A stretch of 29,865 nt of DNA from a virus. Its lineage: Duplodnaviria > Caudoviricetes. Below are positions 1 through 13,474 of this stretch, one piece after another. The position numbers were made by a program, and so were the translations under genes. Position 1 is the first letter of the stretch, and every line of letters begins with the position of its first letter. The DNA lies in the IMG/VR virus record IMGVR_UViG_3300030010_000013, positions 1 to 29,865 of that record; one strand, given 5' to 3'. The notes beneath the pieces are model-generated. The model was given only the letters and a program-made list of their open reading frames with translations. It had not been told where the DNA came from and ran no database searches.

Positions 1-1103
1 ACCGTGGCTGCGTGCGTGGCTTCGTCCGTGGCTTCGCGCGTGGCTTCGTCCGTGGCTTCGCGCGTGGCATCGTCCGTGGCTTCGAACGTGGCTTCGTCCG
101 TGGCGTCGGCCGTTGCGGCGTCCGTGGCGGCGCGCGTGGCGGCGAACGTGGCTGCGAACGTGGCTGCGTGCGTGGCTGCGTGCGTGGCTGCGCGCGTGGC
201 GTCGCTCGTGGCGGCGAACGTGGCTGCGAACGTGGCTTCGTCCGTGGCGGCGAACGTGGCTTCGTCCGTGGCGTCGCGCGTGGCTTCGTCCGTGGCGTCG
301 CGCGTGGCTTCGTGCGTGGCGGCGCGCGTGGCGGCGCGCGTGGCGGCGAACGTGGCTTCGTCCGTGGCGTCGGCCGTTGCGGCGAACGTGGCGGCGCGCG
401 TGGCGGCGAACGTGGCGGCGAACGTGGCTGCGTGCGTGGCTTCGTCCGTGGCGTCGGCCGTTGCGGCGAACGTGGCTTCGCGCGTGGCATCGTCCGTGGC
501 GTCGCGCGTGGCTTCGCGCGTGGCGGCGCGCGTGGCGGCGCGCGTGGCTTCGCTCGTGGCGGCGAACGTGGCGGCGAACGTGGCTGCGAACGTGGCTGCG
601 TGCGTGGCTTCGTCCGTGGCGTCGCGCGTGGCGTAGTCCGTGGCGTCGGCCGTTGCGGCGAACGTTGCGGCGAACGTCGCATCGAGCGTGGCGACGGCTG
701 TGGCGGCGGGCACGGCAGAGTTCGGGATCCCCAGATACGATCTGATGCACGCCTCAGTAACGATCCTGGCCGCGTGCGCCACCGAAGCCATTATGGTCGA
801 CTCCGACGGGACGCACCCAAACAACTGGCGCGCCCGGCCTGGATTGGCTCGGAGCCAGATGGCTCCGCTCGCGACCGAGCTAGCCACAGCTCCGACGAGC
901 GGACTCGAAACGAACGCAACGCGTAATGGTGGCGTGAGATTAGCGGCGCGGTACAGGTCCGCCGCCGCCGCCGCCGCCTCGACCTTGTCCTCGGCGCTCA
1001 TCGGATCACAATTGAGCGCGTTTGCGATCCACTGGTCACGGACCTCTCCGAGCCGCGTCTTGTGCTCGGGGTGATCGTCGAACGAATATAGCTTATGTGC
1101 CAT
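1..1103 (-). CDS. DUF6745-type phage protein with a long Ala-Thr-X-Z tetrapeptide repeat; runs off the left edge (3'-truncated, absent from the ORF track)
   Basis: ATG at 1103 with GGAGG 7 nt upstream; the frame stays open to base 1. My translation is MAHKLYSFDDHPEHKTRLGEVRDQWIANALNCDPMSAEDKVEAAAAAADLYRAANLTPPLRVAFVSSPLVG..., then ATLDATFAATFAATADATDYATRDATDEATHA... The N-terminus (W..., LY.AA.L.PP..V.V.SP) followed by a low-complexity repeat matches my recollection of DUF6745-containing proteins; the DUF6745 domain itself would lie outside the window. Confidence 0.8.
   Translation of the reverse strand, partial: MAHKLYSFDDHPEHKTRLGEVRDQWIANALNCDPMSAEDKVEAAAAAADLYRAANLTPPLRVAFVSSPLVGAVASSVASGAIWLRANPGRARQLFGCVPSESTIMASVAHAARIVTEACIRSYLGIPNSAVPAATAVATLDATFAATFAATADATDYATRDATDEATHAATFAATFAATFAATSEATRAATRAATREATRDATDDATREATFAATADATDEATHAATFAATFAATRAATFAATADATDEATFAATRAATRAATHEATRDATDEATRDATDEATFAATDEATFAATFAATSDATRAATHAATHAATFAATFAATRAATDAATADATDEATFEATDDATREATDEATREATDEATHAAT
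3..710 (-). repeat. 12-bp tandem repeat, 59 units in unbroken register (constant CGTGGC hexamer plus variable hexamer)
   Basis: CGTGGC (or CGTTGC/CGTCGC/TGTGGC) recurs every 12 nt from 3 to 699; on the minus strand this reads GCC ACG NNN GNN = Ala-Thr-X-(mostly Ala/Glu/Asp). Confidence 0.95.
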
Positions 1104-1116
1104 GAAATATCCTCCG

Positions 1117-1210
1117 CGCACCGAGCGGGAATCGAACCCGCATTACCCTTGTTCTTGTCACCCCCCACGGGGGGGTCGATTGTAGGAGCATTACCCTAAT
1201 GCTTCGGTGC
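1117..1210 (-). ncRNA. tRNA-like element (non-canonical, expanded anticodon arm, no encoded CCA)
   Basis: Minus strand: 7-bp acceptor stem GCACCGA/TCGGTGC, D-arm GCAT-TAGGGTA-ATGC, T-arm GCGGG-TTCGATT-CCCGC. The anticodon region is replaced by about 45 nt containing the hairpin ACCCCCC-CGT-GGGGGGT. Confidence 0.75.
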
Positions 1211-1212
1211 CT

Positions 1213-1241
1213 TGACACTGTTTTGGACGTGTCACTCCAAA
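1213..1241 (-). other. predicted H-type RNA pseudoknot
   Basis: Minus strand TTTGGA-G-TGACAC-G-TCCAAA-ACA-GTGTCA: two interleaved perfect 6-bp stems (TTTGGA/TCCAAA and TGACAC/GTGTCA). Confidence 0.55.
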
Positions 1242-1252
1242 CGACTAGACGA

Positions 1253-1723
1253 CTAGTCAGCGACCTGACGAGGCAGCTCACCAGGAGAGTACTCGGCGTG
1301 AATCGTGACCAGGTAGTTGCCGGCCGGGATCACGAGCTCTCCTGGCTCCCCCAGCTTGCGCGCCCGGGGAACTCGATGAGCGTCGCAGAAGTATGACAGC
1401 TCGTGGCCCTCCCCCTGAACGTGCGTCGCGACGACCCCTGGGATGCGCGGGCAGATCTCGCACATGGTCTTGTGCTCCTCGTGGCGCAGTGCCACGGGAG
1501 CCGTCCCCCGCATGTATCGCGCGTCCTCCTCGGTCCTCATGAGGGACGCTCGGCGCGACGGGATGCGGTGAGCATGGCCGGTGACCTCGCCCTCCTGCAG
1601 CACGAGTCCGCGCGCGCCGCGCGCCTTCACTGGCTTGGCGTCCGCGGGCACCGCGTCGACGAGGGTCAGGAAAACATCGCCCTGACGGTAGGAGATTGGT
1701 GGCGTGTAGTTCGTGTTCGACAT
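1253..1723 (-). CDS. conserved hypothetical His-motif protein (YRQGDV...EGEVTGHAH...HEEH...EYSP..RQVAD) with a Cys/His insert
   Basis: 156-aa ORF. The motif set is the one I associate with the small partner gene found beside DUF6745-type genes. Promoter-like elements lie directly upstream. Confidence 0.8.
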   Translation of the reverse strand: MSNTNYTPPISYRQGDVFLTLVDAVPADAKPVKARGARGLVLQEGEVTGHAHRIPSRRASLMRTEEDARYMRGTAPVALRHEEHKTMCEICPRIPGVVATHVQGEGHELSYFCDAHRVPRARKLGEPGELVIPAGNYLVTIHAEYSPGELPRQVAD

Positions 1724-1729
1724 GAGAGC

Positions 1730-1800
1730 ATCATGAGTCGAACGGGTAGGTTTGTCAATACACGAATCTGTATTGACACTAGTTCGACGACTGGTAGGAT
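1730..1800. promoter_or_regulatory. back-to-back sigma70-type promoters with a palindromic operator-like site
   Basis: Minus: TTGACA(1758-1753)-N17-CATGAT-N6-ATG(1723). Plus: TTGACA(1773-1778)-N16-TAGGAT (TGn-extended)-N6-ATG(1807). Perfect inverted repeat TGTCAATACA-N6-TGTATTGACA at 1753-1778. Confidence 0.75.
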
Positions 1801-1806
1801 GACGGC

Positions 1807-2049
1807 ATGAAGGAATTCAACGAGGACCTCCGTCGCGAGGTCGACATCGGGGTGTTGGACCTCGCGCAGATCGAGCACATCGCGGCCCGGGCAGCGGAGC
1901 TCGGGGACTCCGAGATGGAGTCGCTGTGCGATGACGCGATCTCCGGCTCGACCAGCGCCGAAATCGTGACGTGCGCGGCCCATGGGGATGAGCGCTACGT
2001 CGAGTGGATCTCCCGTGGGATGATGCTGGGATGGGAGGTCCGCGAGTGA
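1807..2049 (+). CDS. small acidic hypothetical protein
   Basis: 80 aa with 19 D/E versus 7 K/R; ATG lies 6 nt after a -10 box; the stop overlaps the next start (GTGA). Confidence 0.7.
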   Translation: MKEFNEDLRREVDIGVLDLAQIEHIAARAAELGDSEMESLCDDAISGSTSAEIVTCAAHGDERYVEWISRGMMLGWEVRE

Positions 2050-2327
2050 GCGAGTTGGCTGAGTCATCTCGCGTTGTTGCGCTACTCGACGCGGCGCGCG
2101 ATTGTCGCTGCGACCTGATTTTGTGGGAGCGCGACTGCCGGGCCGCGCCTGCGGCACTCCGTGCGTGGGCTGAGGTCCAGGAACCGGCGCTTCTCCTTGA
2201 GCAGGAGGAGCTCTGGCAGGCCGAGGTCAACCACGTCGCACAGAGCGTGCTGCGCTGCGAGGTCAGCGGGAGCCGTGTCTCCGTCTACTTGCTGCCGAAT
2301 ACCGCAAACAAGATCTCCGGCAAGTGA
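2046..2327 (+). CDS. hypothetical protein
   Basis: GTG at 2046 overlaps the upstream TGA and is preceded by GGGAGG; 93 aa (MSELAESSRVVALLDAARDCRCD...). The 3' end overlaps the amidase convergently. Confidence 0.6.
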   Translation: MSELAESSRVVALLDAARDCRCDLILWERDCRAAPAALRAWAEVQEPALLLEQEELWQAEVNHVAQSVLRCEVSGSRVSVYLLPNTANKISGK

Positions 2328-3046
2328 ATGCCCATCCAGACCGGTCCCGGGTCGGTCCGGTTCTGGGGGTCGATCTGCGCGTGAGAGAACGCGCAATTGT
2401 CCCAGATCAGGTCGTACTTGTTGACCAGCGCCGAGGTGACGCGCTGGGCCGCTTGATGCTGCGCCACGGTGAACAGATGGTGGCCCCGTCCGTTGCCTTC
2501 GATGTGGACTTCGTCCTCGGGGACGATGATTGGTTCGCCGACCGGAAGCCCCCGCCTGAACGGCCAGCCGAGCCACTCCTTGTCGACCCGTCGGAGCTCG
2601 CCGACGTTCTCGAGCTCGATGCCAGTGAACAACGAGTTGGCCCCCGGTTGCCCTCGGTTGGTTGGCGAGCTCATCGACCACATGCGATGCCCGCGTTCCA
2701 TGCCGGCGACCGCGAACCGGGCCGCCGTGGCGCCGCCGGCATGCCAGCTCCCACGCAACATGCTGACGCTCTGCACGGTCTGCCCAGCGCGGTCGATGCA
2801 GACGTGCCAGCTTGCGGCCCGGGCGACGCCGCTGTGGGCGATCCGCTGGGCCAGCCGCAGGGCTCCGACGCTGCGGGTATCGGTGTAGTGCCAGACGATG
2901 CCGAGGATGTGCGTCTCGCCTGGCCAGAGAGCTTGGCTCTGGTCGCTCAGCACCGTGCTCACATCCCGGCCGGTCATCCACCCCTGGTCATCGAGCTCGA
3001 TGCTGGAGTCATCGTGCGCTTGGAGATGCTGCTCTTTGGTTTCCAT
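2285..3046 (-). CDS. N-acetylmuramoyl-L-alanine amidase (Amidase_2), probable endolysin
   Basis: Motifs GIVWHYT, ASWHVCIDRAG, SWHAG, GIELEN and SHAQIDP..RTDPG supply the His/His/Asp zinc ligands and the catalytic Glu. Confidence 0.9.
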   Translation of the reverse strand: METKEQHLQAHDDSSIELDDQGWMTGRDVSTVLSDQSQALWPGETHILGIVWHYTDTRSVGALRLAQRIAHSGVARAASWHVCIDRAGQTVQSVSMLRGSWHAGGATAARFAVAGMERGHRMWSMSSPTNRGQPGANSLFTGIELENVGELRRVDKEWLGWPFRRGLPVGEPIIVPEDEVHIEGNGRGHHLFTVAQHQAAQRVTSALVNKYDLIWDNCAFSHAQIDPQNRTDPGPVWMGIHLPEILFAVFGSK

Positions 3047-3052
3047 TCGGGC

Positions 3053-3096
3053 ATGATGCGACGTGTATTGACACGCGTCAAGTCTGGTGGCACGAT
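3053..3096. promoter_or_regulatory. overlapping divergent sigma70-type promoters
   Basis: Plus: TTGACA(3068-3073)-N17-CACGAT (TGn-extended)-N6-ATG(3103). Minus: TTGACG(3081-3076)-N17-CATCAT-N6-ATG(3046). Confidence 0.7.
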
Positions 3097-3102
3097 GGCG
3101 AC

Positions 3103-3327
3103 ATGCAAGATAAACCGAAATCAGTCACGGTCGCGCACGCCATCGAGCATTCGATGTGCCTGCTCGCTAGCAAACTCGAAAATATGCAGCCCGGCGAGAG
3201 CGTCGCATCCATCATCACGGCACACGCCAACGACGCGGCCCAGGTTGTCGTGCTCGAGCTGGAGGCGTTCGGCGTGGAGTTCCAATCGCAGCCGTCGGCG
3301 CTGGACGCATCCAGGATCGTCGCGTGA
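3103..3327 (+). CDS. hypothetical protein (74 aa, MQDKPKSVTVAHAIEHS...)
   Basis: C-terminal part of track ORF 2812..3327; the start was chosen from promoter geometry; GTGA overlap with the next gene. Confidence 0.65.
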   Translation: MQDKPKSVTVAHAIEHSMCLLASKLENMQPGESVASIITAHANDAAQVVVLELEAFGVEFQSQPSALDASRIVA

Positions 3328-4337
3328 TCGCCGTCATCCAGGTAGACCAGGAGCGAGCGAAGCAGTTCCTCGGGGCTTCGGAGGCGGCCGGTGTGCTCGG
3401 GCTAGACAAGTACAACCCGCCGATCGCGATCTGGCGCCGTCACCGCGGCCTCGAGGTCGAGGATTCACTTCCGGAGCATGTGAGCGAAGCCGCCGAGTGG
3501 GGCCAGCTGCACGAGCCTATCGTGCGTGGCAAGTACGCGCTCATGACCAAGTCCGTGGTCGAGGTCCCGACCAAGTCGACCGTGAAAGACGGCTGGCTCC
3601 GCTGCACCCCCGACGGAATCGTGTTCGATCACGGTCGTTCTCGTGATCCCGGGGCGCATGACGACGAGACCTTGCAGGGACATCCGGAGGATCGTCAAGG
3701 CCTCTTGCAGTGCAAGACCGCGGATGCGCACCTCGATTGGGAATGGCAGTACGGCCCGCCTGCCCGCTACGAGGTGCAGGTCCGCGTTGAGATGGCGGTG
3801 ATGAGCCTGCCGTGGTGCGATGTGGTCGCCCTGGTTGGCGGCAACCGGCTCAGGGGCCCGTTCCGCGTCGAGAGAGACCTTGCGATCGAGGATCGAATCG
3901 TCACCGATCTACGCGCATTCTGGGACTTGGTCCGGAGCGGAACCGAGCCGACCATCGACCACACTGACGCATGGCGTCTGCACGTGAGCGAGAAAATGCG
4001 GGCGACGAAACTGACGATCCAGTCGGACCGGGAACTTGCCGAACTCCTGAACGACATGCGCACGGCTCGCATCGCGCGATCAGCGGCGATCAGACGCGTC
4101 GACGCGCTCAACAACGATTTGTTACTGCGGATGTCTGCGGCCGGGGCACAGGTCGTAGAGGACTCCGTACTCGGCCGATTCGGCGCGTACCGAGCTGGCG
4201 GAGGCATGGACTGGCGGGGGTATGCTGAGTCGCTCGAGTCGTTGGTCCCATCCGCCGCCGACCGGTCGAAGTTCAAGCGCGAATCTACAACTTGGGCAAT
4301 CCGCGTACCGCGCGGGTTCACAGGAGATGACGAATGA
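3324..4337 (+). CDS. YqaJ-like viral recombinase / lambda-exonuclease-family nuclease
   Basis: R..FLGASEAAGVLG...Y, WGQLHEP, LRCTPDG, LLQCKT, P.RYEVQV; upstream of RecT. Confidence 0.9.
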   Translation: MIAVIQVDQERAKQFLGASEAAGVLGLDKYNPPIAIWRRHRGLEVEDSLPEHVSEAAEWGQLHEPIVRGKYALMTKSVVEVPTKSTVKDGWLRCTPDGIVFDHGRSRDPGAHDDETLQGHPEDRQGLLQCKTADAHLDWEWQYGPPARYEVQVRVEMAVMSLPWCDVVALVGGNRLRGPFRVERDLAIEDRIVTDLRAFWDLVRSGTEPTIDHTDAWRLHVSEKMRATKLTIQSDRELAELLNDMRTARIARSAAIRRVDALNNDLLLRMSAAGAQVVEDSVLGRFGAYRAGGGMDWRGYAESLESLVPSAADRSKFKRESTTWAIRVPRGFTGDDE

Positions 4338-4663: not shown

Positions 4664-5568
4664 GCAAAATCGACTACACCAAGTCCGACAAGCGTATGAT
4701 CGAACAGGCCGCCAACGACCCCCAGGCGGTGATGCGTCAGCAGCTGGGAGAGACCCAGCGGTATCTCGATGCGAAGACGCCACAACTCGAACGATGGATC
4801 ACTAGCGGCGTCGATCCGCGCGCGCTGATTCGGTTCGCCATGCTCGACATGAGCTCGCCGACCCGAGCCGGCGAAAAGCTCCGTGAGTGCTCACGCGAGA
4901 GCATCTACATGGCGCTCCTCGCGTGCGCGGTAACCGGATTAGAGCCTGGCGCCCTCAAGGGCGAGGCGTTCCTAGTCCCGTATGGGCGCAAGGCACAGTT
5001 CATGATCGGATGGAGGGGGATCGTCAAGCAGGCGCGTCGGTCGCGCGACGTGGTAGGCCTGACCGCCAACGTGGTGCTCGAGCACGACACGTTCGAGCTC
5101 GACCTTGCCAGCGGCGGACCGCCAGTGCACCGTCCGCTGCTGCGCGGGCAGCGGGGGGAAATTATCGGCGCGTACGCGGTGGCGACCTTCGCGTCAGGTC
5201 ACCGAGAGGTCGAGTGGATGGACCGCGAGGACCTCGAGTCCGTGAAAAAGGTCGCCACCCAGCGCGGAGAGAGCGATGCGTGGAGGGGATGGGAAGATCA
5301 GATGTTCCGCAAGGCCCCCATCCGCCGCATCGCAAAGCGCCTGCCGCTGGGGCACGACTACTACGTGGGGTTGGCTGTAGAGCGCGCCCACGAAGAGGGC
5401 AAGAGCGACCAGTCCGTGCTCGACATCGTGACAGATGGCGAGGCCAGCCGTTCGGAGGTCCAGGCCGGCGCCGCCGCTTCGATGCGCGCCCAGTCTGGCG
5501 GACTGGATGCCCCGACCTCGGAGGAGCTGGCGGAGATCACTCGAATTGAGCGGGAGGCGCAGGGATGA
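4660..5568 (+). CDS. recT: RecT-family single-strand annealing protein
   Basis: L.ECS.ESI..ALL.CA..GLEPG...GEAFLVPY...AQFMIGW.G...ARRS and W....DQM.RK..IRR.AK.LP motifs. Confidence 0.92.
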   Translation: MSKIDYTKSDKRMIEQAANDPQAVMRQQLGETQRYLDAKTPQLERWITSGVDPRALIRFAMLDMSSPTRAGEKLRECSRESIYMALLACAVTGLEPGALKGEAFLVPYGRKAQFMIGWRGIVKQARRSRDVVGLTANVVLEHDTFELDLASGGPPVHRPLLRGQRGEIIGAYAVATFASGHREVEWMDREDLESVKKVATQRGESDAWRGWEDQMFRKAPIRRIAKRLPLGHDYYVGLAVERAHEEGKSDQSVLDIVTDGEASRSEVQAGAAASMRAQSGGLDAPTSEELAEITRIEREAQG

Positions 5569-5927
5569 GGGGTTTCGCGCGCAAGCGAGATGCGAATGAG
5601 CGCGGCATCATCATCGCCCTGCGCGCGGTCGGCGCGACGGTCGCGCAACTGGACGGGGCAGGAACCCCAGACCTAATCGTCCAGTACCGCGGCGTGCTCA
5701 CGCTCCTGGAGGTCAAGGACTCCAGGAGCGTGAGCGTGGCTCCCCACCGGCGCAGTAAGGGGGACCACGGCGAGCTCACGCCGGCTCAACGGAAATGGTG
5801 GGCCGCATGGGGCGAGCCGAACCCAACCATCGTGATGACGGCGGAGCAAGCTCTCGATGCGATCGGCGCTACCCATGACACGGCCGGAGCCGTATCACGT
5901 TCGCCTAGGGATGGCAATCCTACCTGA
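5565..5927 (+). CDS. VRR-NUC / PD-(D/E)xK nuclease (Holliday junction resolvase-like)
   Basis: RDANE..I..ALR..G, G.PDL.V, LLEVK, GELTPAQ.KW. Confidence 0.85.
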   Translation: MRGFARKRDANERGIIIALRAVGATVAQLDGAGTPDLIVQYRGVLTLLEVKDSRSVSVAPHRRSKGDHGELTPAQRKWWAAWGEPNPTIVMTAEQALDAIGATHDTAGAVSRSPRDGNPT

Positions 5928-6816: not shown

Positions 6817-8196
6817 CTACACCGTCGTCCAGCGGTTTACCGGCAGATTGGTAAGGGTGGCGCCAGCGAACGGAAGGTTCTGCTCTTCGAGGCAGCCACC
6901 GAGCAGCGTGTTACCTCCGACTCGGAGATCTCGGGCGACCGGGAGCGACATCGCGATGAGCATCGTAGGCGTCGAGCTGTCGTCGTAGAACACGTTGTCG
7001 AGCACGCTGGCCATGCGCATGATCGCCGGACCATTTCCGGAGAGCGAGACGCCGAATGCTCCCCAGTTCCGGATCCGGTTGCGGTGAACGACCACCGACC
7101 CGAATGGCGCTCCGTCGACGGTCGTGCGCGCGTAGACGCCCGAGGCGTAGAGGTCCTCGACGGCCGCTCCGATGATCAAGTTGTCGACCACCATGATGGT
7201 GCCGACGCACGTTGCATGGACTCCATGCGCTGGGCCTACTCCCGACGTGATGCGGTTGCACTCCACGACGACCCAGTCAGGTTGCTGGCCGGCCCCGGTC
7301 CCGATGATCGCTACCACGGAATCAGCTGGCGTGGCTCCCCCTGGGATGGGAGAGAGCGCCAAATCGTTGTGGCGGATGTCAATCCTATTGCACGTCCGGT
7401 AGACCTGGATCGTCGGCTTGTTGGTGCTGTTGATGCTCTTGTTATGGTGGACCGAGATGTTGTCGCACCAGACCATCTCAAGTGACCCATCGAACTCGTT
7501 GTGGTGGATGTCCCAACCGGTTGAGCGCCAGCCGGATCCGCTACCGGCCACGGTCATCGCGTAGTCCCCCTGGCCAGTTCCGATGGTACACTCCGCGACT
7601 TCGACTCCATCGACGCGGAACCCCGGTCCGGGCTCGGTGTCGAGCTGCTGGACCGCATTCCCGAACAGGCGGCATGCGCTCACCCTACCGCCCGTGGTGC
7701 CGCCCCCGAAGGTCAGCCCGTTGCGGAGGTTGGCGGTGGCCGTGCAGCGCAAGATCTGGGCGTTGTGGGAGCCGATGCTGATGTACAGGCCGTCGCCGGT
7801 GAAGTTGCGCGCTACGACGTCGCGGATTTCGATGCCCACCGCTCCCAGCGCGAACACCCCGGCCCGGTGCTCGTCTGGCGTCTGATTCTGGGTGTTTCCG
7901 TCCAATGTGAGATTGGCGATGACGATCCCCGGCGCGGAAGCCTGCAGCGTGCGCACGTTGGCTCCGATCCCCGGAGCCTGCAGGAGAACGGACGCACCCA
8001 CGGCGCCGTGTCCGACCAGCTGCGTGTTGGCCGGGATGCTCAAGCAAAATGCCCCGGCGCCCTGGGCAAGGGCATAGGTTCCGGACGGAACCCATACGAT
8101 GCCACCGGCGCCCGCGGTGAGGGCGGACTGGAAGGCGAGACGATCATCGGTAACTCCGTCACCGACCGCTCCGAAATCGTGTACGTCAACTGACAT
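6817..8196 (-). CDS. right-handed parallel beta-helix protein (pectate-lyase superfamily), probable tailspike/depolymerase
   Basis: N-terminal VHDFGAVGDGVTDD..AFQ.AL...G..VWVP.GTY, NLTLDGN, and repeated I..N.I beta-helix rungs. Confidence 0.85.
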   Translation of the reverse strand: MSVDVHDFGAVGDGVTDDRLAFQSALTAGAGGIVWVPSGTYALAQGAGAFCLSIPANTQLVGHGAVGASVLLQAPGIGANVRTLQASAPGIVIANLTLDGNTQNQTPDEHRAGVFALGAVGIEIRDVVARNFTGDGLYISIGSHNAQILRCTATANLRNGLTFGGGTTGGRVSACRLFGNAVQQLDTEPGPGFRVDGVEVAECTIGTGQGDYAMTVAGSGSGWRSTGWDIHHNEFDGSLEMVWCDNISVHHNKSINSTNKPTIQVYRTCNRIDIRHNDLALSPIPGGATPADSVVAIIGTGAGQQPDWVVVECNRITSGVGPAHGVHATCVGTIMVVDNLIIGAAVEDLYASGVYARTTVDGAPFGSVVVHRNRIRNWGAFGVSLSGNGPAIMRMASVLDNVFYDDSSTPTMLIAMSLPVARDLRVGGNTLLGGCLEEQNLPFAGATLTNLPVNRWTTV

Positions 8197-8208
8197 GTGC
8201 GGATCCTA

Positions 8209-9012
8209 TCAGGTCCATGGGATAGTCCAGCCGAGAGTTTGCAGGAGGGTCTTGATTTGCGCGTCGGTCAGCTGGGCCGCCGCTCCATTGAACTGGGTAC
8301 GGTAGAGCAGCGACCCGACGAATCCGAAATTGAACCTCGACCTCTTCCCGGTCGTGGCCGCACGAGTTGGTACGAGTTTTTCCTGGTCTGTGTACGCCGC
8401 GCATCGTGCAGCAATCGGGTCGTCGATATACACGAACGGTCGGACCGCACCGGTGGGGTCCAAGGTTCCGGTCACCACCGATCCGCCGCTTACTGCCTGG
8501 AATCGCGGTGTTGTGCTGACGCGTGTGGTGCCTATGTTCGCGGTCCCCATGACGTCGATGTTGCGGATCGCAACTGGGGCGGTGACGATGATCGCGTAGC
8601 TGATGATCAACGTGGCTGCAGTCGCCGGGTCAGGTAGACTCGCAGATGAACTGTCAGCGATGGCTGTCCCGGCATCCGCGCCCGTGACCCCAAGCCTCGA
8701 CCATCCGGTGATGGGTTGCTGGTACAGGATGGGGGTTCCAGACACCGTTCCTGGCAGCGAGTCGATGGAGTCAGCCAGGTTTCCGCTGGCGTCCTGACAG
8801 AGCCAGAGCAGGCCGGGACCGCCACTCCCGATCCCGGCGACGGCCATGACCTGGTTCCACTCGCTGAGCGACGCCGGGACGTATTTCCCTGACGTGGCAT
8901 CGCGCGTTACGGCCGCCAGAGACCCGCCTGGCGCGGCGATCTGGTCGGACGACACGCCCACTGCGTTACCGGCGCGCATCCCGGCGACCGGGCCGACTCG
9001 GGGGCCAATCAT
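8209..9012 (-). CDS. virion protein with a LamG/concanavalin-like domain
   Basis: True start is probably ATG 9012 (MIGPRVGP..., ATGA overlap). LWLCQDASGNLADS...GT.SG...YQQP resembles the N-terminus of phage LamG-like domains. Confidence 0.55.
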   Translation of the reverse strand: MIGPRVGPVAGMRAGNAVGVSSDQIAAPGGSLAAVTRDATSGKYVPASLSEWNQVMAVAGIGSGGPGLLWLCQDASGNLADSIDSLPGTVSGTPILYQQPITGWSRLGVTGADAGTAIADSSSASLPDPATAATLIISYAIIVTAPVAIRNIDVMGTANIGTTRVSTTPRFQAVSGGSVVTGTLDPTGAVRPFVYIDDPIAARCAAYTDQEKLVPTRAATTGKRSRFNFGFVGSLLYRTQFNGAAAQLTDAQIKTLLQTLGWTIPWT

Positions 9013-9503
9013 GCCTTCCCGTGTGGCATGACTCGGATCACGCCTCCGGTGCCGCCGACGACCGCCTTGAGGCGACTCCTGCGACTGCCAAAGTTTCCCA
9101 GGTGGATCATCGCGCCGCCAGCGGTGGTTCCCGCGGTGGTCACGGTCAAGTTGGTCGCGGTCGCGCCGGCCGAGATTGCGACGTACGCCGTGGTCGGGTT
9201 CTCCTGGATCCAGTTCCCTGCGCCGCTGTCGAAGTTGCTCACATCGGCGACGCCGCCCGGACCGCCGAGCCCGCTTGGCATGTTGCTGTCCTCGATGGTG
9301 AGGACCACGACGATCGCAGCATCCCACACGATGTGGATGCTCTCGAGCGGAGCGGATTCACCGCCGAGCGCAAACACGTAGGTCGTGCCGGACGCCAATG
9401 TGACGCCCTTCTGTGCCGGGTCGCCGATGCGTGGCTCGACCTTGGTCCCGGAGGTCAGAATAAAGGCGGGGAGTTCCAGGCCGGTGGGGTGAGCGTAGTT
9501 CAT
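9009..9503 (-). CDS. hypothetical virion protein (beta-rich)
   Basis: 164 aa, G/T/A/V-rich, coupled by ATGA overlaps on both sides. Confidence 0.7.
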   Translation of the reverse strand: MNYAHPTGLELPAFILTSGTKVEPRIGDPAQKGVTLASGTTYVFALGGESAPLESIHIVWDAAIVVVLTIEDSNMPSGLGGPGGVADVSNFDSGAGNWIQENPTTAYVAISAGATATNLTVTTAGTTAGGAMIHLGNFGSRRSRLKAVVGGTGGVIRVMPHGKA

Positions 9504-12500
9504 GGGCGAGCTCCTTGAGTCATCTTGGCGATCGTGGTCGGTGCGCGCAGGGTCGCGCCTGAGGCGGATGGAGGAGGTTGCGGCGGAGCGTAGCCCTGCT
9601 GGGCCCAGGCTGCGTAGGATGGAGTCATCGTCGAATCGAGCGGGACGTCGAACAGCAAGCTGGCTTGCTCCCGGCGCCCATACGGGACCGGGTGATCGAC
9701 ATCGGAAGCCTGCTCAAGTAGGCGCTTCTGCGCCGCCGCGAACAGCGACGGGTAGACGACCTTCAGCGCCTCTGCGGCCTGAGGTGTGACCACGCCTCCG
9801 GAGGCGACCTGTTCGAGTACGGTTGCCGGATCCGTCGCGGCCTGCACGTAGCGGGCGAACTTCGTCATCTCGCCACGGTTTGGCGTGTACGCCGTGCTCC
9901 CAGGGAGGATGCCGGGGGCCTCGAGCGGCTTGGGCATCTTGTCGAGGAGGAACTGGACTTGGCGCTCGAACCCGTCGGCGATCGCGTTGACGATGGTCGG
10001 GTCAGCGGCGCGGATGCGCGCCTGCACGGCCTGGCGGATCGCGCCTGGCTGTGCGGCATCGGCGAGCTCGGCGCTGCGACGCTGATACAACTCGGCGATA
10101 TCTTTCGTGTCACGGTCGACCTTGCCGATGGAACCCGGGTGCGAGCCATCGAACAGCCGGTGCGCCAGGATCGCCGCTGCGCCGCCCGCCGCGGGGGATG
10201 CTGCGGTCGCAGCCTTGCTCGAACCGTGGAGGATGCCGTCCACGGCGGCGAACACCCGTTGCTTGGTCTCCGCCGCCTTTCTGGCGATGGTCGTCTCAGC
10301 GGTCTCGGCGATCCGGCCGCCGAACCGGCCGAAGGTCTTTCCGATGACTCGGGCTCGTAGGTAGACGCTCAACAAGGGGCCGATTACCGGGATGTCGTGA
10401 GGATCTGGGAGTGGGACGCCCATCATCCGCAGGGCCTCGTAGATGGTCCCTGCGTCCGCCAGGTGACCGGATCGCGATGTGGTACCGGTCGATGCGCCAG
10501 CCAGATTCGCCGCGTGCTTGGCGCCGATCTCGTCGCGAAGTCCAGGCTCGCGCACGGTCTTGTCTCCGCGGGCGAACTCCTCGCGAACCTGGCGCCCTAT
10601 GGTCGGATCCCTCACCGTCTTGTCGGCGGCGGCGCGCGCAACCGGGGTTTCCCCGCCGAGCATTGCGTGGCCGGATGCCTTGGTGAGCTGGTCGGCACCG
10701 AGCGCGGTGGCCTGCTGCGTGGCCTGCTCCGCATGGGACTGCGCCGCGCGGAACCCCTCCGCGCGCGCGGCGGCGCCGGATGGGACCTGGATCCCCAGCG
10801 CCTGCGCGAGCTCGGCCAGCCCGGCATGTGCGGACTCGTACCGGCCGATGACGCGCGATGCCTCGTCGATATCCGCGGCGACGTTATCAGGGCGCTGTTT
10901 GAGCGCGTCGGCGATCCGCTCATCAGGAGTCATCGCGCGACGGGACATCATCTCATCTACCGCCTGACCAGCCGCCACCCGCTCCTCTGGCTTCACCTTG
11001 TTGTTGATGCGGAACTCTGCGCTGTTGCGTTCGAGTTCGCTGCCGTGCCATTCGATCTGCCGGCCACGCGCTCCGAGCGCGTTACCCTCGCCGGCCGGTA
11101 CCGACTCGCGCCAGCCAGGGCCTTCGCGGCGGAGTCGGGCGGCGTACTCGCGCGGATCGGTCCTGTTCAGGAGCCCCTGGAGATCTGAGCGCGCCTCGCG
11201 CAGCTCCCCGACCGCAGCGCGCAGCTTGGCTACGGTTGGGTTGCGCGCAGCCAGTTCGGCCTCGACCGGGTCGGGACCGCGTGCCCGCGGTCGCATTCCG
11301 CCCATCGCGCCGAGCTCCTGACCTTGGTCCAGGGCAGACTTCGTCCCTTGTAGCTGCGATAGGAGGTCGCCTCCATGCCCGCCGTCGGGGCGTGACGTCG
11401 GAGCTTCGGGAGACGGTGGCTTCTCATCAACGTAGTCAGGTACGTCAGCAATCTTACCGTCTTCCATGTCGATGAGACGCTTCACAGCTCGGTCCCATCG
11501 CTTGGATGCCTGCTCATACTCAGGTGTCCCGGAAGTGAGCTCGTCGAATTTGGCGCTGAGCAGGTCTTGATGCTCCGACAGCTGGCGCCTGGAGAGCTTG
11601 TCAATAGGCGACTCCAGGGTAACCGACCCACGCTTGACTAACAGGTCGGGAGTGAACTCACCGGGCAGTAACGTGACATGCACCTCACGATATGGAGGAT
11701 ATGTATGAGACGTCCCGTTCTCGAACGTGATCGTAATTGACTTGTCACCGTGAACCACGTGAGACTTCGCGCCTCTCCAGCGAGTCGCCGTCGGGAGCTG
11801 CGGCTTCATTTCGTTGCTGTCGACGCGGAATCGCGACCCCCGTGGGAGAAGCGTCTCGACTTCCGAGCTGAACTTGCTCGGAATCGGAGCGCCGGCCGAA
11901 CCCGCAGGAGTAGCGATGTTTATCACCACGTCCTCGTTGCGAACTTTCGAGTTCGCGTCATGCGACGTCGAAGTGAACGCTGGGTCATCGTACACGTCAC
12001 CTGGCTTGAGCTCGGAGAATCGCTCCTTTGCCCATTTACCGGACAGCCCACGGTACAGCGTCGTGTCTCGCGGGATTCCCGCCTCAGGCATCCGCATCAT
12101 GCTGTCGAGCTGAGCCAAAGCACGGGCATCGGCCCCCTCGAGGTTCTTGCCGGCGCGAAGCGCTCCGTTGATGACCTCGTCACCCCCCTTCGAGTAGTAC
12201 ATGGCGCTGTCGAATTGCTGGCGGCTCATCGCGTGCCCAAACGCCTTTTTGAAGGCCTCGCCCTCGGTATCCGAAAGCGGCCCGGCTGATGTCGACGGCG
12301 TATTGGCGTTGTCGATCTTGCGCTTACCGACACGCGTGCTGTTGAGCTCTCGCGCGCGAGCATCAAGCGCATCGTTCATGGCGTTAGCCGGGTTGGCCGG
12401 TGATGGACCGCCGATTACCTTGGTGTCGATCGGCGGTCGCTTATCGATACGCCCGCCGATTTCCCCGACATCTGGGACATCGAGCCCATGCAGGAGCGTC

Positions 12501-13474
12501 TCGAGCTCCGGGTCGAAGCGGCCCAGGCTGGCCCCTTCGGGGCTGACTTGCGGCGCCTTCAGGTTGCCCAGGAGGCCTTCAAGCTCTACATCATGCGTCG
12601 GGGTCGCGGAGAGCTCGGCGGCGCGCTGCGCGAACGCCGGGTCAGTGGCCAACGCCAAGTTGCGCTGGTCGACGATGGTTTGCTGGGCGCGCTGCATGAG
12701 CGTGTCACCGTCATCCAGCGCCGCACCAAGCTCCTTGGACGCGGCTGCGTGAGCCTCCTCGACGGCCTGCGGGGTGACCTCCTGCGAGGGGAACAACTTG
12801 CGGGCCGGCAAATCGCGCGGGGCGCCGCCGAGCAGCCCGCGCGCCTTCGCCAGGGCCTCTCCGGACAGCGCCAACGCGCCCGACCCGGCTCCGCCCCACA
12901 GCGCCCCCTGTCCCATCGCGCCGACGAACGCATCGGCAGAGAGGTCCCGGTCGCCAAGTGCCACGTCCGCCACGTAGGCGCCGGCGTTTTGCAGCGCTCC
13001 CTCTGCGGCGCCGCTGGCGACGTGGGCGCCGATGCGCGCTACCGTGCTGGCCCCCTCCCCCAGGTCGGCAAGGCCGCTGCCGATTCGGCTCGCGATCCCG
13101 GCGGGGGAGCGCGCGAGCAACGAGCCAGGAGCGGCTCCCAGGAGCGACGGGGCTATCGCGCCTGCGATCTGCCCGGCGGTTCCCAGGGTGCCGTGTTGCG
13201 AGCGCGCCGAGCTGAGCCGCTCAAGCTGGCCCGGGTCAAGCAGCCCGGCGAGCGCCACGTCGGATGCGCCGAGCGTGAGCCCGGACAGCGCGCCGGTGGC
13301 GAGCGAGTTGATGCCGCCGACAATGCCGCTCTGGTCACTCGGCGCCGCCGCCGCGGTGGTCTGAGCAGCCTCCTGCAGGCTTACCGGCTGATAGCCTTGG
13401 ATGACGGCGTGGCCGACCTCGCCCTCGGGGACATTGATGACTTCTCCGGTTCCTGGGTGACGAAGAACGGGCAC
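9500..13474 (-). CDS. large internal virion/ejection protein with an embedded VIP2-like ADP-ribosyltransferase domain
   Basis: 1324 aa. The Ala/Gly-rich N-terminus (GALSGLTLGASD) is typical of podophage ejection proteins. Central motifs YYS.GG...INGALR, TLYRG, FTSTS and EVETLLPRGSRFRV lie at about 12200-11820. Confidence 0.8.
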   Translation of the reverse strand: MPVLRHPGTGEVINVPEGEVGHAVIQGYQPVSLQEAAQTTAAAAPSDQSGIVGGINSLATGALSGLTLGASDVALAGLLDPGQLERLSSARSQHGTLGTAGQIAGAIAPSLLGAAPGSLLARSPAGIASRIGSGLADLGEGASTVARIGAHVASGAAEGALQNAGAYVADVALGDRDLSADAFVGAMGQGALWGGAGSGALALSGEALAKARGLLGGAPRDLPARKLFPSQEVTPQAVEEAHAAASKELGAALDDGDTLMQRAQQTIVDQRNLALATDPAFAQRAAELSATPTHDVELEGLLGNLKAPQVSPEGASLGRFDPELETLLHGLDVPDVGEIGGRIDKRPPIDTKVIGGPSPANPANAMNDALDARARELNSTRVGKRKIDNANTPSTSAGPLSDTEGEAFKKAFGHAMSRQQFDSAMYYSKGGDEVINGALRAGKNLEGADARALAQLDSMMRMPEAGIPRDTTLYRGLSGKWAKERFSELKPGDVYDDPAFTSTSHDANSKVRNEDVVINIATPAGSAGAPIPSKFSSEVETLLPRGSRFRVDSNEMKPQLPTATRWRGAKSHVVHGDKSITITFENGTSHTYPPYREVHVTLLPGEFTPDLLVKRGSVTLESPIDKLSRRQLSEHQDLLSAKFDELTSGTPEYEQASKRWDRAVKRLIDMEDGKIADVPDYVDEKPPSPEAPTSRPDGGHGGDLLSQLQGTKSALDQGQELGAMGGMRPRARGPDPVEAELAARNPTVAKLRAAVGELREARSDLQGLLNRTDPREYAARLRREGPGWRESVPAGEGNALGARGRQIEWHGSELERNSAEFRINNKVKPEERVAAGQAVDEMMSRRAMTPDERIADALKQRPDNVAADIDEASRVIGRYESAHAGLAELAQALGIQVPSGAAARAEGFRAAQSHAEQATQQATALGADQLTKASGHAMLGGETPVARAAADKTVRDPTIGRQVREEFARGDKTVREPGLRDEIGAKHAANLAGASTGTTSRSGHLADAGTIYEALRMMGVPLPDPHDIPVIGPLLSVYLRARVIGKTFGRFGGRIAETAETTIARKAAETKQRVFAAVDGILHGSSKAATAASPAAGGAAAILAHRLFDGSHPGSIGKVDRDTKDIAELYQRRSAELADAAQPGAIRQAVQARIRAADPTIVNAIADGFERQVQFLLDKMPKPLEAPGILPGSTAYTPNRGEMTKFARYVQAATDPATVLEQVASGGVVTPQAAEALKVVYPSLFAAAQKRLLEQASDVDHPVPYGRREQASLLFDVPLDSTMTPSYAAWAQQGYAPPQPPPSASGATLRAPTTIAKMTQGARP

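Follow-up and report, generated by a model that had tools for sequence, protein, structure and literature searches.

The window analysed here, a 29,865-nucleotide stretch of phage DNA (IMGVR_UViG_3300030010_000013, positions 1 to 29,865), carries at its left end two minus-strand genes, one for a His-motif protein (gene 1) and one for a protein with tetrapeptide repeats (gene 2), which are separated by a tRNA-derived frame. On a modest balance of probability, the locus consists of two separable things, namely a conserved gene pair and a tRNA-derived frame inserted into it. The preliminary description had proposed a single system made up of two proteins and one RNA. A three-part system of this kind would have been the greater surprise, and it is not supported because the comparative data, with frame-free gaps in related loci and similar frames before other genes, fail to carry it. 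The RNA is most probably not an obligate partner of the pair.

The gap between gene 1 and gene 2 measures 149 nt (1252-1104) and holds the following features.

1241-1236/1227-1222 and 1234-1229/1218-1213, minus strand: two crossing 6-bp stems in a 42-nt leader, spanning 1213..1241
1117..1210, minus strand: tRNA-derived frame (93-nt fold, 1210-1118) with discriminator G1117
1210-1204/1124-1118, minus strand: acceptor stem of the frame, 7/7 Watson-Crick
1202-1188, minus strand: D arm of the frame with GG in the loop; U8 is missing by comparison with L273
1176-1160, minus strand: C6/G6 hairpin with a 3-nt loop, lying in a 46-nt replacement of the anticodon/variable region
1141-1125, minus strand: T arm of the frame, 5/5 T stem, loop TTCGATT
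1197-1188 and 1149-1140, minus strand: 10-nt direct repeat AGGGTAATGC inside the frame
1101..1116, minus strand: C, GGAGG Shine-Dalgarno sequence, 7 nt and ATG, abutting the discriminator; L383, L409, L412 and L377 share this arrangement

The 93-nt tRNA-shaped frame is real. It has the 7-bp acceptor stem, the D arm and the T arm with a TTCRA loop of a canonical tRNA, and lacks the 5-bp anticodon stem with its 7-nt loop, U8 and an encoded CCA. In a local search the Rfam tRNA family (RF00005) scored it at 29.9 bits (gathering threshold 29; E 1.5e-4), while it was missed by the whole-window Rfam gathering scan and by ARAGORN. Folding z-scores were -2.97 and -2.03 for two trims, and a strict detector of acceptor stem plus T arm found 0 matches in 2.53 Mb of shuffled loci. 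Over its 3'-terminal 33 nt the frame matches tRNA-Gly from Streptomyces phages (91%), and at its 5' end it is similar to a phage class I tRNA-Thr minus U8. No homologue of this precise element was found: of the 46 viral matches to its 3' pattern, most were standard tRNAs and none lay near the pair; among cultured phages 74 records matched, and the 20 matches listed cover the T arm and acceptor only; the 46-nt arm had no relative in viral contigs or cultured phages. The 10-nt direct repeat, reached by 3 of 2,000 shuffles, could permit an alternative D-stem pairing. The preliminary description had seen almost the whole gap as structured, with a pseudoknot followed by a tRNA-like fold. The tRNA-shaped fold stands, as does its end 2 nt before the ribosome-binding site (GGAGG at 1115-1111 begins 2 nt past the acceptor stem, with ATG at 1103); the pseudoknot is unproven. 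The crossing stems were matched in 11 of 20,000 shuffles of the 42-nt leader, yet the 30-kb window has nine sites that satisfy this test as well; loop 3 has only 3 nt to span a 6-bp stem, and no homologue is available for covariation. They may form either an H-type pseudoknot or a plain leader hairpin ending 2 nt before the frame.

Loci with gene 1 were collected in a main set (240 loci, reduced to 201 clusters at 90% identity) and a second viral set (58 loci, 54 new clusters). A downstream partner is present in 191 clusters, and of these only the one of this phage has a tRNA frame between the genes (0/190 others, most of them translationally coupled), which largely refutes the notion that homologous pairs carry a structured intergenic RNA; similar frames precede unrelated genes of sister phages, and no test supported the suggested role of the RNA as an anti-defence decoy. 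Frames do stand just upstream of gene 1 in L002, L083 and L054, with the 3' half of one in L085, which is unexpected for an independent cassette; the upstream DNA of L085 looks chimeric, and L002 and L083 share theirs. The 117 kb lying within 300 nt of gene 1 contain anticodon-less frames in 4 of 201 clusters, and the 1,082 kb farther away contain 5, so that the near zone has 7.4 times the rate of the distant one (p 0.008 if the window is counted, 0.036 if it is left out); 4 of the 19 rows of the window's gene-1 clade carry a frame. These figures would suit an RNA that works with the protein complex as its third functional part, whether scaffold, decoy or regulator, and is encoded nearby at a free position. 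Such a role is nevertheless very unlikely, as frames near gene 1 occur in 0 of the 54 clusters of the second set, the p value becomes 0.064 when that set is pooled and 0.21 if L002 and L083 count once, intergenic DNA makes up more of the zone near gene 1, the frames have no sequence in common outside the tRNA core, like frames precede other genes, and about 98% of the pair's loci are frame-free. A conserved module at a shifted position, at first suggested by T arms upstream of gene 1, was rejected on the second set and on the gene-1 tree; in this poorly resolved tree the carriers are not clustered (five changes for five rows, 500 of 500 shuffles being equally low). Rfam searches of 19 loci (18 of the clade and L054) returned noise only. 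A weak residual link between frame and gene 1 is left.

Frames of the same kind were found elsewhere in phages. Ten records with a total of 383 kb were scanned: the window, a further record of this phage (G009) and those of eight relatives. In G001 and G004, anticodon-less frames end like that of the window, with a discriminator, C, GGAGG, 6-7 nt and ATG, before other genes. A viral scan for this ending gave 55 loci, of which 14 passed a stem filter; of the latter, seven are called tRNAs by ARAGORN, and the other seven (L383, L409, L412 with its twin L422, L394, L424 and L407) are not. L407 is probably coding, and the ends of L394 and L424 are presumably tmRNA-like. In L409 the frame again precedes an unrelated gene. 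The frames of L383 (G001 5544-5647) and L412/L422 (G004 13181-13266) occupy the slot after a PD-(D/E)XK gene (PF12684), in which L377 has a tRNA-Arg(UCU)-like gene, read by eye and with one acceptor mismatch; a hairpin ending 3 nt upstream precedes the slot element in L377, L383 and L412. The frames of G001 and G002 escaped a search with the Rfam tRNA family. The step within one slot from an ordinary-looking tRNA to anticodon-less frames, together with the tRNA resemblances of both ends and the absence of a homologue of the exact element outside this phage, would fit a decaying tRNA pseudogene or an integration scar with no present function. That the frame is such a relic is highly improbable, given that both stems, the D-loop GG and the T loop are intact despite the 46-nt central replacement, that relatives retain stems through two-sided changes (in the T stem, seven cells of a nine-row alignment changed on both sides), and that the integrase-linked tRNA halves of relatives lie elsewhere (G001 near 8831) and not in the frame slot. 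The 3' part of a tRNA-Leu(UAG) after the integrase in G001 (7702-8915) and a partial tRNA-Phe in G008 near 40900 are likely attP sites of temperate relatives.

Several further tRNA-shaped elements were noted. The replaced arm of L383 contains CACCTCC, the anti-Shine-Dalgarno core, and the arm of L083 is likewise pyrimidine-rich. In L283 and L280 the CCA of the element overlaps the ATG of the next gene (CCATG), L283 also being without U8; processing there could yield a leaderless message. L394 and L424 have 77-79-nt elements with a short middle arm directly before GGAGG and an open reading frame (ORF) for a 44-aa Cys-rich protein. ARAGORN-negative tRNA-Leu(UAA)-like genes of 121-124 nt lie about 850 nt upstream of gene 1 in L057, L060, L065 and L066 and have an anticodon-loop insertion bordered by TTAA; L057 and L060 additionally carry a tRNA with a CUA anticodon. 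The tRNA-Leu-like frames of L054 (3852-3976) and L419, whose T stem has 6 bp and whose middle part is expanded, stand directly before a ribosome-binding site.

The two genes and the elements around them are as follows.

1253..1723, minus strand: gene 1, 156-aa His-motif protein; phrog_27831 (E 1.3e-8), PF31129 by Atlas (Pfam 38.1)
1..1103, minus strand: 5' part of gene 2, with ATG at 1103, cut by the contig end
1..704, minus strand: 12-bp repeat array (Ala-Thr-X-Z), 58 full units and a partial one; assembly break point
1730..1758, minus strand: sigma-70-type promoter TTGACA-17-CATGAT, from a promoter scan
1753..1778, no strand: perfect 9-bp inverted repeat with an 8-nt spacer, formed by two back-to-back -35 boxes

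That the gene for the His-motif protein and the one for DUF6745 form a single widespread unit, as the preliminary description had it, is borne out by a partner beside gene 1 in 228 of the 255 non-redundant loci of both sets, by the fusion P0121, in which DUF6745 is followed by the His domain (a fused viral cluster is also present in Atlas), and by a predicted heterodimer. The partner lies downstream in 165, upstream in 14 and was not found in 22 (16 of them short) of the 201 main clusters, the corresponding numbers for the 54 clusters of the second set being 26, 23 and 5; the partner hidden Markov models (HMMs) were built from the same loci, and 16 of the 27 clusters without a partner have less than 400 nt downstream. 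The gap in the main set has a median of 4 nt and does not exceed 20 nt in 117 of 165 loci, and the pair is usually translationally coupled. In L047, L070, L112 and L135, HNH-like or other endonuclease-like ORFs (identified by eye) begin at or near the gene-1 stop, which suggests that this junction attracts insertions. Both protein families are catalogued yet uncharacterised; NCBIfam has no match for either protein of this phage, and a literature search, with subscription journals and preprint supplements outside it, found no paper naming DUF6745 and no description of such phage frames.

Gene 1 belongs to phrog_27831/PF31129 by profile or structure match and by its RQGD, GHxH, HxxH and RxVxD* motifs, the first three seen here as YRQGD, GHAH and HEEH; it also has a CxxC...CxxH. 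The Cys/His insert (residues 85-129) is present in 28 of 120 listed homologues, and its best match to a B-box or ZZ-type finger is a weak one to a B-box (Z 3.2, root-mean-square deviation 2.3, 39 aligned residues). Residues D16, H50, H52, H81, E83, H84, E144 and the terminal D156 are 92-100% conserved over 253 relatives and for this reason suggest a putative metal site; G45-G49 were fixed in every search pattern for these relatives, and H50 and H52 in some. When gene 1 was co-folded with the C-terminal 239 residues of the gene-2 protein, completed on contig L081, a check that the preliminary description had proposed, a heterodimer was predicted with a score of 0.78 (best of three controls 0.00). 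Of 157 solved complexes 116 come up to this mark, as do 2 of 215 mismatched pairs. At least 73% of the contacts are shared between runs, with a predicted local distance difference test (pLDDT) of at least 82 for the partner. The predicted interface gathers conserved residues of both chains, namely R13-G15, G45-T48, H81, E83, H84, E144 and Y145 of gene 1 and N118-E120, N177, R193, P196, Y233 and P235 of the partner. On this model the gene-1 protein very probably binds the DUF6745 domain of the gene-2 protein. Structure searches gave no similar solved structure for the heterodimer proteins; PDB fold searches returned no match for the gene-1 model or for the DUF6745 domain (model pLDDT 71), and one uncharacterised viral look-alike was noted; in neither case does the lack of a match establish a new fold.

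Gene 2 is completed by L081, a second contig of this phage that is identical to the window over the non-repeat part of 1300-704. The complete protein has 619 aa, with DUF6745 (PF20530) at the C-terminal residues 426-576 (E 4e-25, 88.7 bits against a cut-off of 27; Atlas 0.96). Leftward extension and a profile search, as advised earlier, thereby confirmed the DUF6745-type gene, the domain of which lies beyond the window end. The array reported as 59 Ala-Thr-X-Z repeats is real and comprises 58 complete units from 704 to 9, the 59th being truncated by the contig end. Across the 58 units, positions 1, 2, 4, 5 and 9 of the 12-bp unit are invariant, and variation is concentrated at positions 7, 8 and 11, where it changes the amino acid, and at 12. 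Assemblies give at least 58 units in the window, 58 in L081 and at least 66 in L350. Real repeat polymorphism is indistinguishable from assembly collapse because Logan contigs stop at the array in 4/4 runs, and summed contig depth is not usable as a copy number. A short-period repeat was found in 44 of 108 partner proteins, with period 4 in at least 28, and none in the remaining 64.

The promoter reported upstream of the His-motif gene is present on the minus strand at 1758-1730, and three promoter-like sites occur in 1-4000 against 0.3 expected. Its message is probably leaderless, because the gene-1 ATG (1723) lies 6 nt past the -10 box and has no Shine-Dalgarno sequence; the promoter/start layout of the relative L090 is similar. 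The promoter/terminator scan found no terminator-like site, and with a single promoter, gene 1, frame and gene 2 appear to be co-transcribed. A divergent rightward promoter lies on the plus strand at 1773-1800, and the 9-bp inverted repeat is a candidate operator for both. The rightward promoter region (1753-1800) stands before an ORF for an 80-aa acidic protein (1807-2049) without a family match.

The frame is read here as a message signal and not as a third part because related phages place similar shapes before other genes. The chances that it is a processing or stability cassette derived from a tRNA are about even, and the suggestion of the preliminary description that the RNA processes the message or sets stoichiometry is also the best guess here. 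According to this proposal, the promoter would start a leaderless message running through gene 1, the frame and gene 2, and host RNase P would cut 5' of G1210, uncoupling gene 2 from the leaderless gene-1 message. C4 RNA and mRNAs are among the non-tRNA substrates of RNase P (PMC11143913). The C after the discriminator would hinder RNase Z, which is suppressed by cytidines in that place (PMC7479834), and the frame would therefore stay attached as the base-paired 5' end of the gene-2 mRNA. Retained beside the Shine-Dalgarno sequence of gene 2 itself, it would replace the translational coupling of relatives. The small His-rich protein would bind the DUF6745 domain; the repeat array, by analogy with gp54 of mycobacteriophage Tweety only, would space the N-terminal domain from the heterodimer and be tuned by recombination, and the pair may be a repeat-tuned factor against host defences.

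In addition to the frames upstream of gene 1, several points weigh against this reading. Acceptor and T-stem positions of six anticodon-less frames are paired in 72/72 cases with varied pair types, an evidence that is partly circular because the frames were chosen by the detector for paired stems; acceptor pairs were tabulated by script because a MAFFT alignment of nine frames left the 5' acceptor strands out of register. The C after the discriminator, seen in 7/7 tabulated frames, was built into the search pattern for L383, L409, L412 and L377, so that only the window, L002, L083 and L085 show it independently. Phage tRNAs located 1-23 nt before GGAGG, surveyed as 110 unique hits from 3/64 parts of the collection, show no peak at 1 nt, a distance seen in 2 of 75 canonical tRNAs, and the abutment may reflect packing; a special selection for Shine-Dalgarno abutment was rejected on this ground, and since there is no such peak, abutment alone proves no function. 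As to the proteins, PADLOC matches neither of the two in this phage, gp54 is not homologous (HMM E > 3 against the partner models and no match to the gene-1 model), and the pair adjoins STM4011-STM4015 genes in 11 bacterial loci, which argues against a phage-only counter-defence role.

Anticodon-less frames made up 10 of the 110 unique hits of the spacing survey, with 21 more having a T arm only, and are thus fairly common before phage genes. RNAC and RNAD of phage T4 are tRNA-like. The frame could be a free small RNA gene, with both ends cut, CCA added, the 46-nt arm acting in trans and its location mere packing, an explanation that agrees with the intact elbow and acceptor, the frequency of such frames and the missing spacing peak, as well as with the production of RNAC and RNAD by T4, the function of which is given as unknown (PMC9697503), and with C4 RNA as an RNase P substrate (PMC11143913). 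It is regarded as rather unlikely in view of the lack of an encoded CCA, of the loss of the gene-2 ribosome-binding site that exonucleolytic 3' trimming would cause, of the 46-nt arm having no relative in viral contigs or cultured phages, and of the antisense searches, in which no match exceeded 10 nt for the window or 9 nt for the L081 extension. All of these matches lie in the GC hairpin or in the core of the tRNA fold; the search left about 4.6 kb of the genome uncovered, and pairing of 8 nt or less was below its reach. For the L002 element, the best antisense match had 11 nt and lay in GC-rich stems.

For the proteins, a heterodimer that binds metal is the favoured reading; an enzymatic role for it is as plausible as counter-defence, the latter, by analogy, being doubtful. 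The pair may tentatively be considered as an enzyme that requires a metal and hydrolyses or modifies nucleotides or peptides within a general conflict or metabolite pathway, with the repeats as a neutral flexible spacer. The near-invariant residues of the putative metal site, the neighbours in the 11 bacterial loci (radical SAM, STM4013 hydrolase, STM4014 and STM4015) and the partners without a short-period repeat (64/108) are consistent with an enzyme; no fold match to any enzyme was obtained, the search patterns had preset part of the conserved residues, and the repeat variation changes amino acids at set positions. No STM4011-STM4015 gene is among the Pfam-scanned ORFs of the window and L081, and a literature search on STM4011-15 returned unrelated papers only. 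The adjoining loci include L174, L178, L192, L194, L202, L203, L214, L217, L221, L222 and L228 (Planctomycetota, Verrucomicrobiota, Streptomyces and others), and several of their partners have a leucine-rich-repeat-like middle in place of the tetrapeptides.

The window is a linear virus record with genes for terminase, head, tail-spike, amidase, RecE/RecT-like and excisionase-like proteins by ORF family scans, and represents about half of the genome by CheckV. A Logan contig of 36,997 nt starts at the 3' flank of the gene-2 repeat and circles to the 5' flank; because it joins both flanks, the genome is about 37-38 kb and the array is the point where assemblies break. All 24 listed runs containing 700-2300 are peat metagenomes of 2019, which may be the source; there is no RNA dataset among them, and the single run whose contig covers the whole RNA region shows no sequence variants in it. 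A small gene in sister phages encodes a protein that we take to resemble Myxococcota proteins. Within the virion gene block (9500-13474, minus strand), a 1,324-aa protein has an ADP-ribosyltransferase domain (PF03496, E 8e-11) and is possibly ejected together with the DNA.

New at this locus are a frame that separates two genes normally coupled and a series, seen in one slot, that leads from an ordinary-looking tRNA to frames lacking the anticodon; this series offers a rare view of tRNA genes shedding the anticodon while the frame persists in the same slot. The His/DUF6745 pair spans phages and many bacterial phyla, and now has a testable heterodimer model with a candidate metal site. In its boldest and distinctly unlikely form, the proposal would have a soil-phage group turning tRNA genes into movable 'tRNA-cap' cassettes, cut by RNase P, protected from RNase Z by the C and kept folded against the Shine-Dalgarno sequence to set mRNA stability and translation; recruited repeatedly, they would here retune the ratio of a metal-binding His/DUF6745 heterodimer of new fold that counters defence through a repeat arm of variable length.

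Compared with a class I tRNA, such as phage tRNA-Gly(UCC) or tRNA-Thr(UGU), the frame shares the acceptor, the D arm with GG, the T arm and near-identical ends; in contrast to canonical tRNAs it has 93 nt and no anticodon stem-loop, U8 or CCA. Small non-decoding phage RNAs like the frame are RNAC and RNAD of T4 (PMC9697503) and C4 RNA of P1/P7, which is matured by RNase P (PMC11143913). The frame differs from them in lacking an Rfam C4 match, an antisense target in the sequence searched and a tRNA cluster around it, and a C4-type antisense RNA was rejected on the match lengths given above. A tmRNA was likewise rejected (ARAGORN and Rfam negative, only 46 nt inside, no CCA), as was a bacterial Y RNA (YrlA), with no Rfam match and no TROVE match among the 27 scanned ORFs of the window, a record of about half the genome.

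The pair itself corresponds to PF20530 with phrog_27831/PF31129, known from a cultured example in genes 37-38 of prophiGD102-1, where the partner has QLxx repeats; the window differs by the tRNA frame that separates normally coupled genes and by the Cys/His insert of gene 1. The gp54 protein of Tweety has unique N- and C-terminal regions around some 40-60 or more tetrapeptides of 12-bp units (PMC9262239, PMC2884959), and its defence-escape mutants differ in repeat number (PMC2884959, PMC9262239). As in gene 2, the first two repeat residues are fixed and the last two vary with amino-acid change. Tweety gp53, gp54 and gp55 have no sequence homology to either protein of the pair; gp54 is not known to have a His-rich partner or RNA, and counter-defence has been shown for gp54, not for the pair. 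The closest parallel to the frame is found in the t-elements of plant mitochondria, which likewise are tRNA-like folds in a precursor adjoining a protein gene, proposed to direct RNase P/RNase Z and to act as cis cleavage signals (Forner et al. 2007, PMC1920247). The frame of the window is embedded in a precursor next to a protein gene in the same manner; it differs in belonging to a phage, in the bacterial Shine-Dalgarno sequence set against the discriminator, in the 46-nt replacement arm, in the C after the discriminator, which argues against an RNase Z cut, and in that cleavage here is a prediction. If such frames do punctuate or cap phage mRNAs, they would be a bacterial-virus counterpart of the organellar t-elements that tRNA finders have missed.

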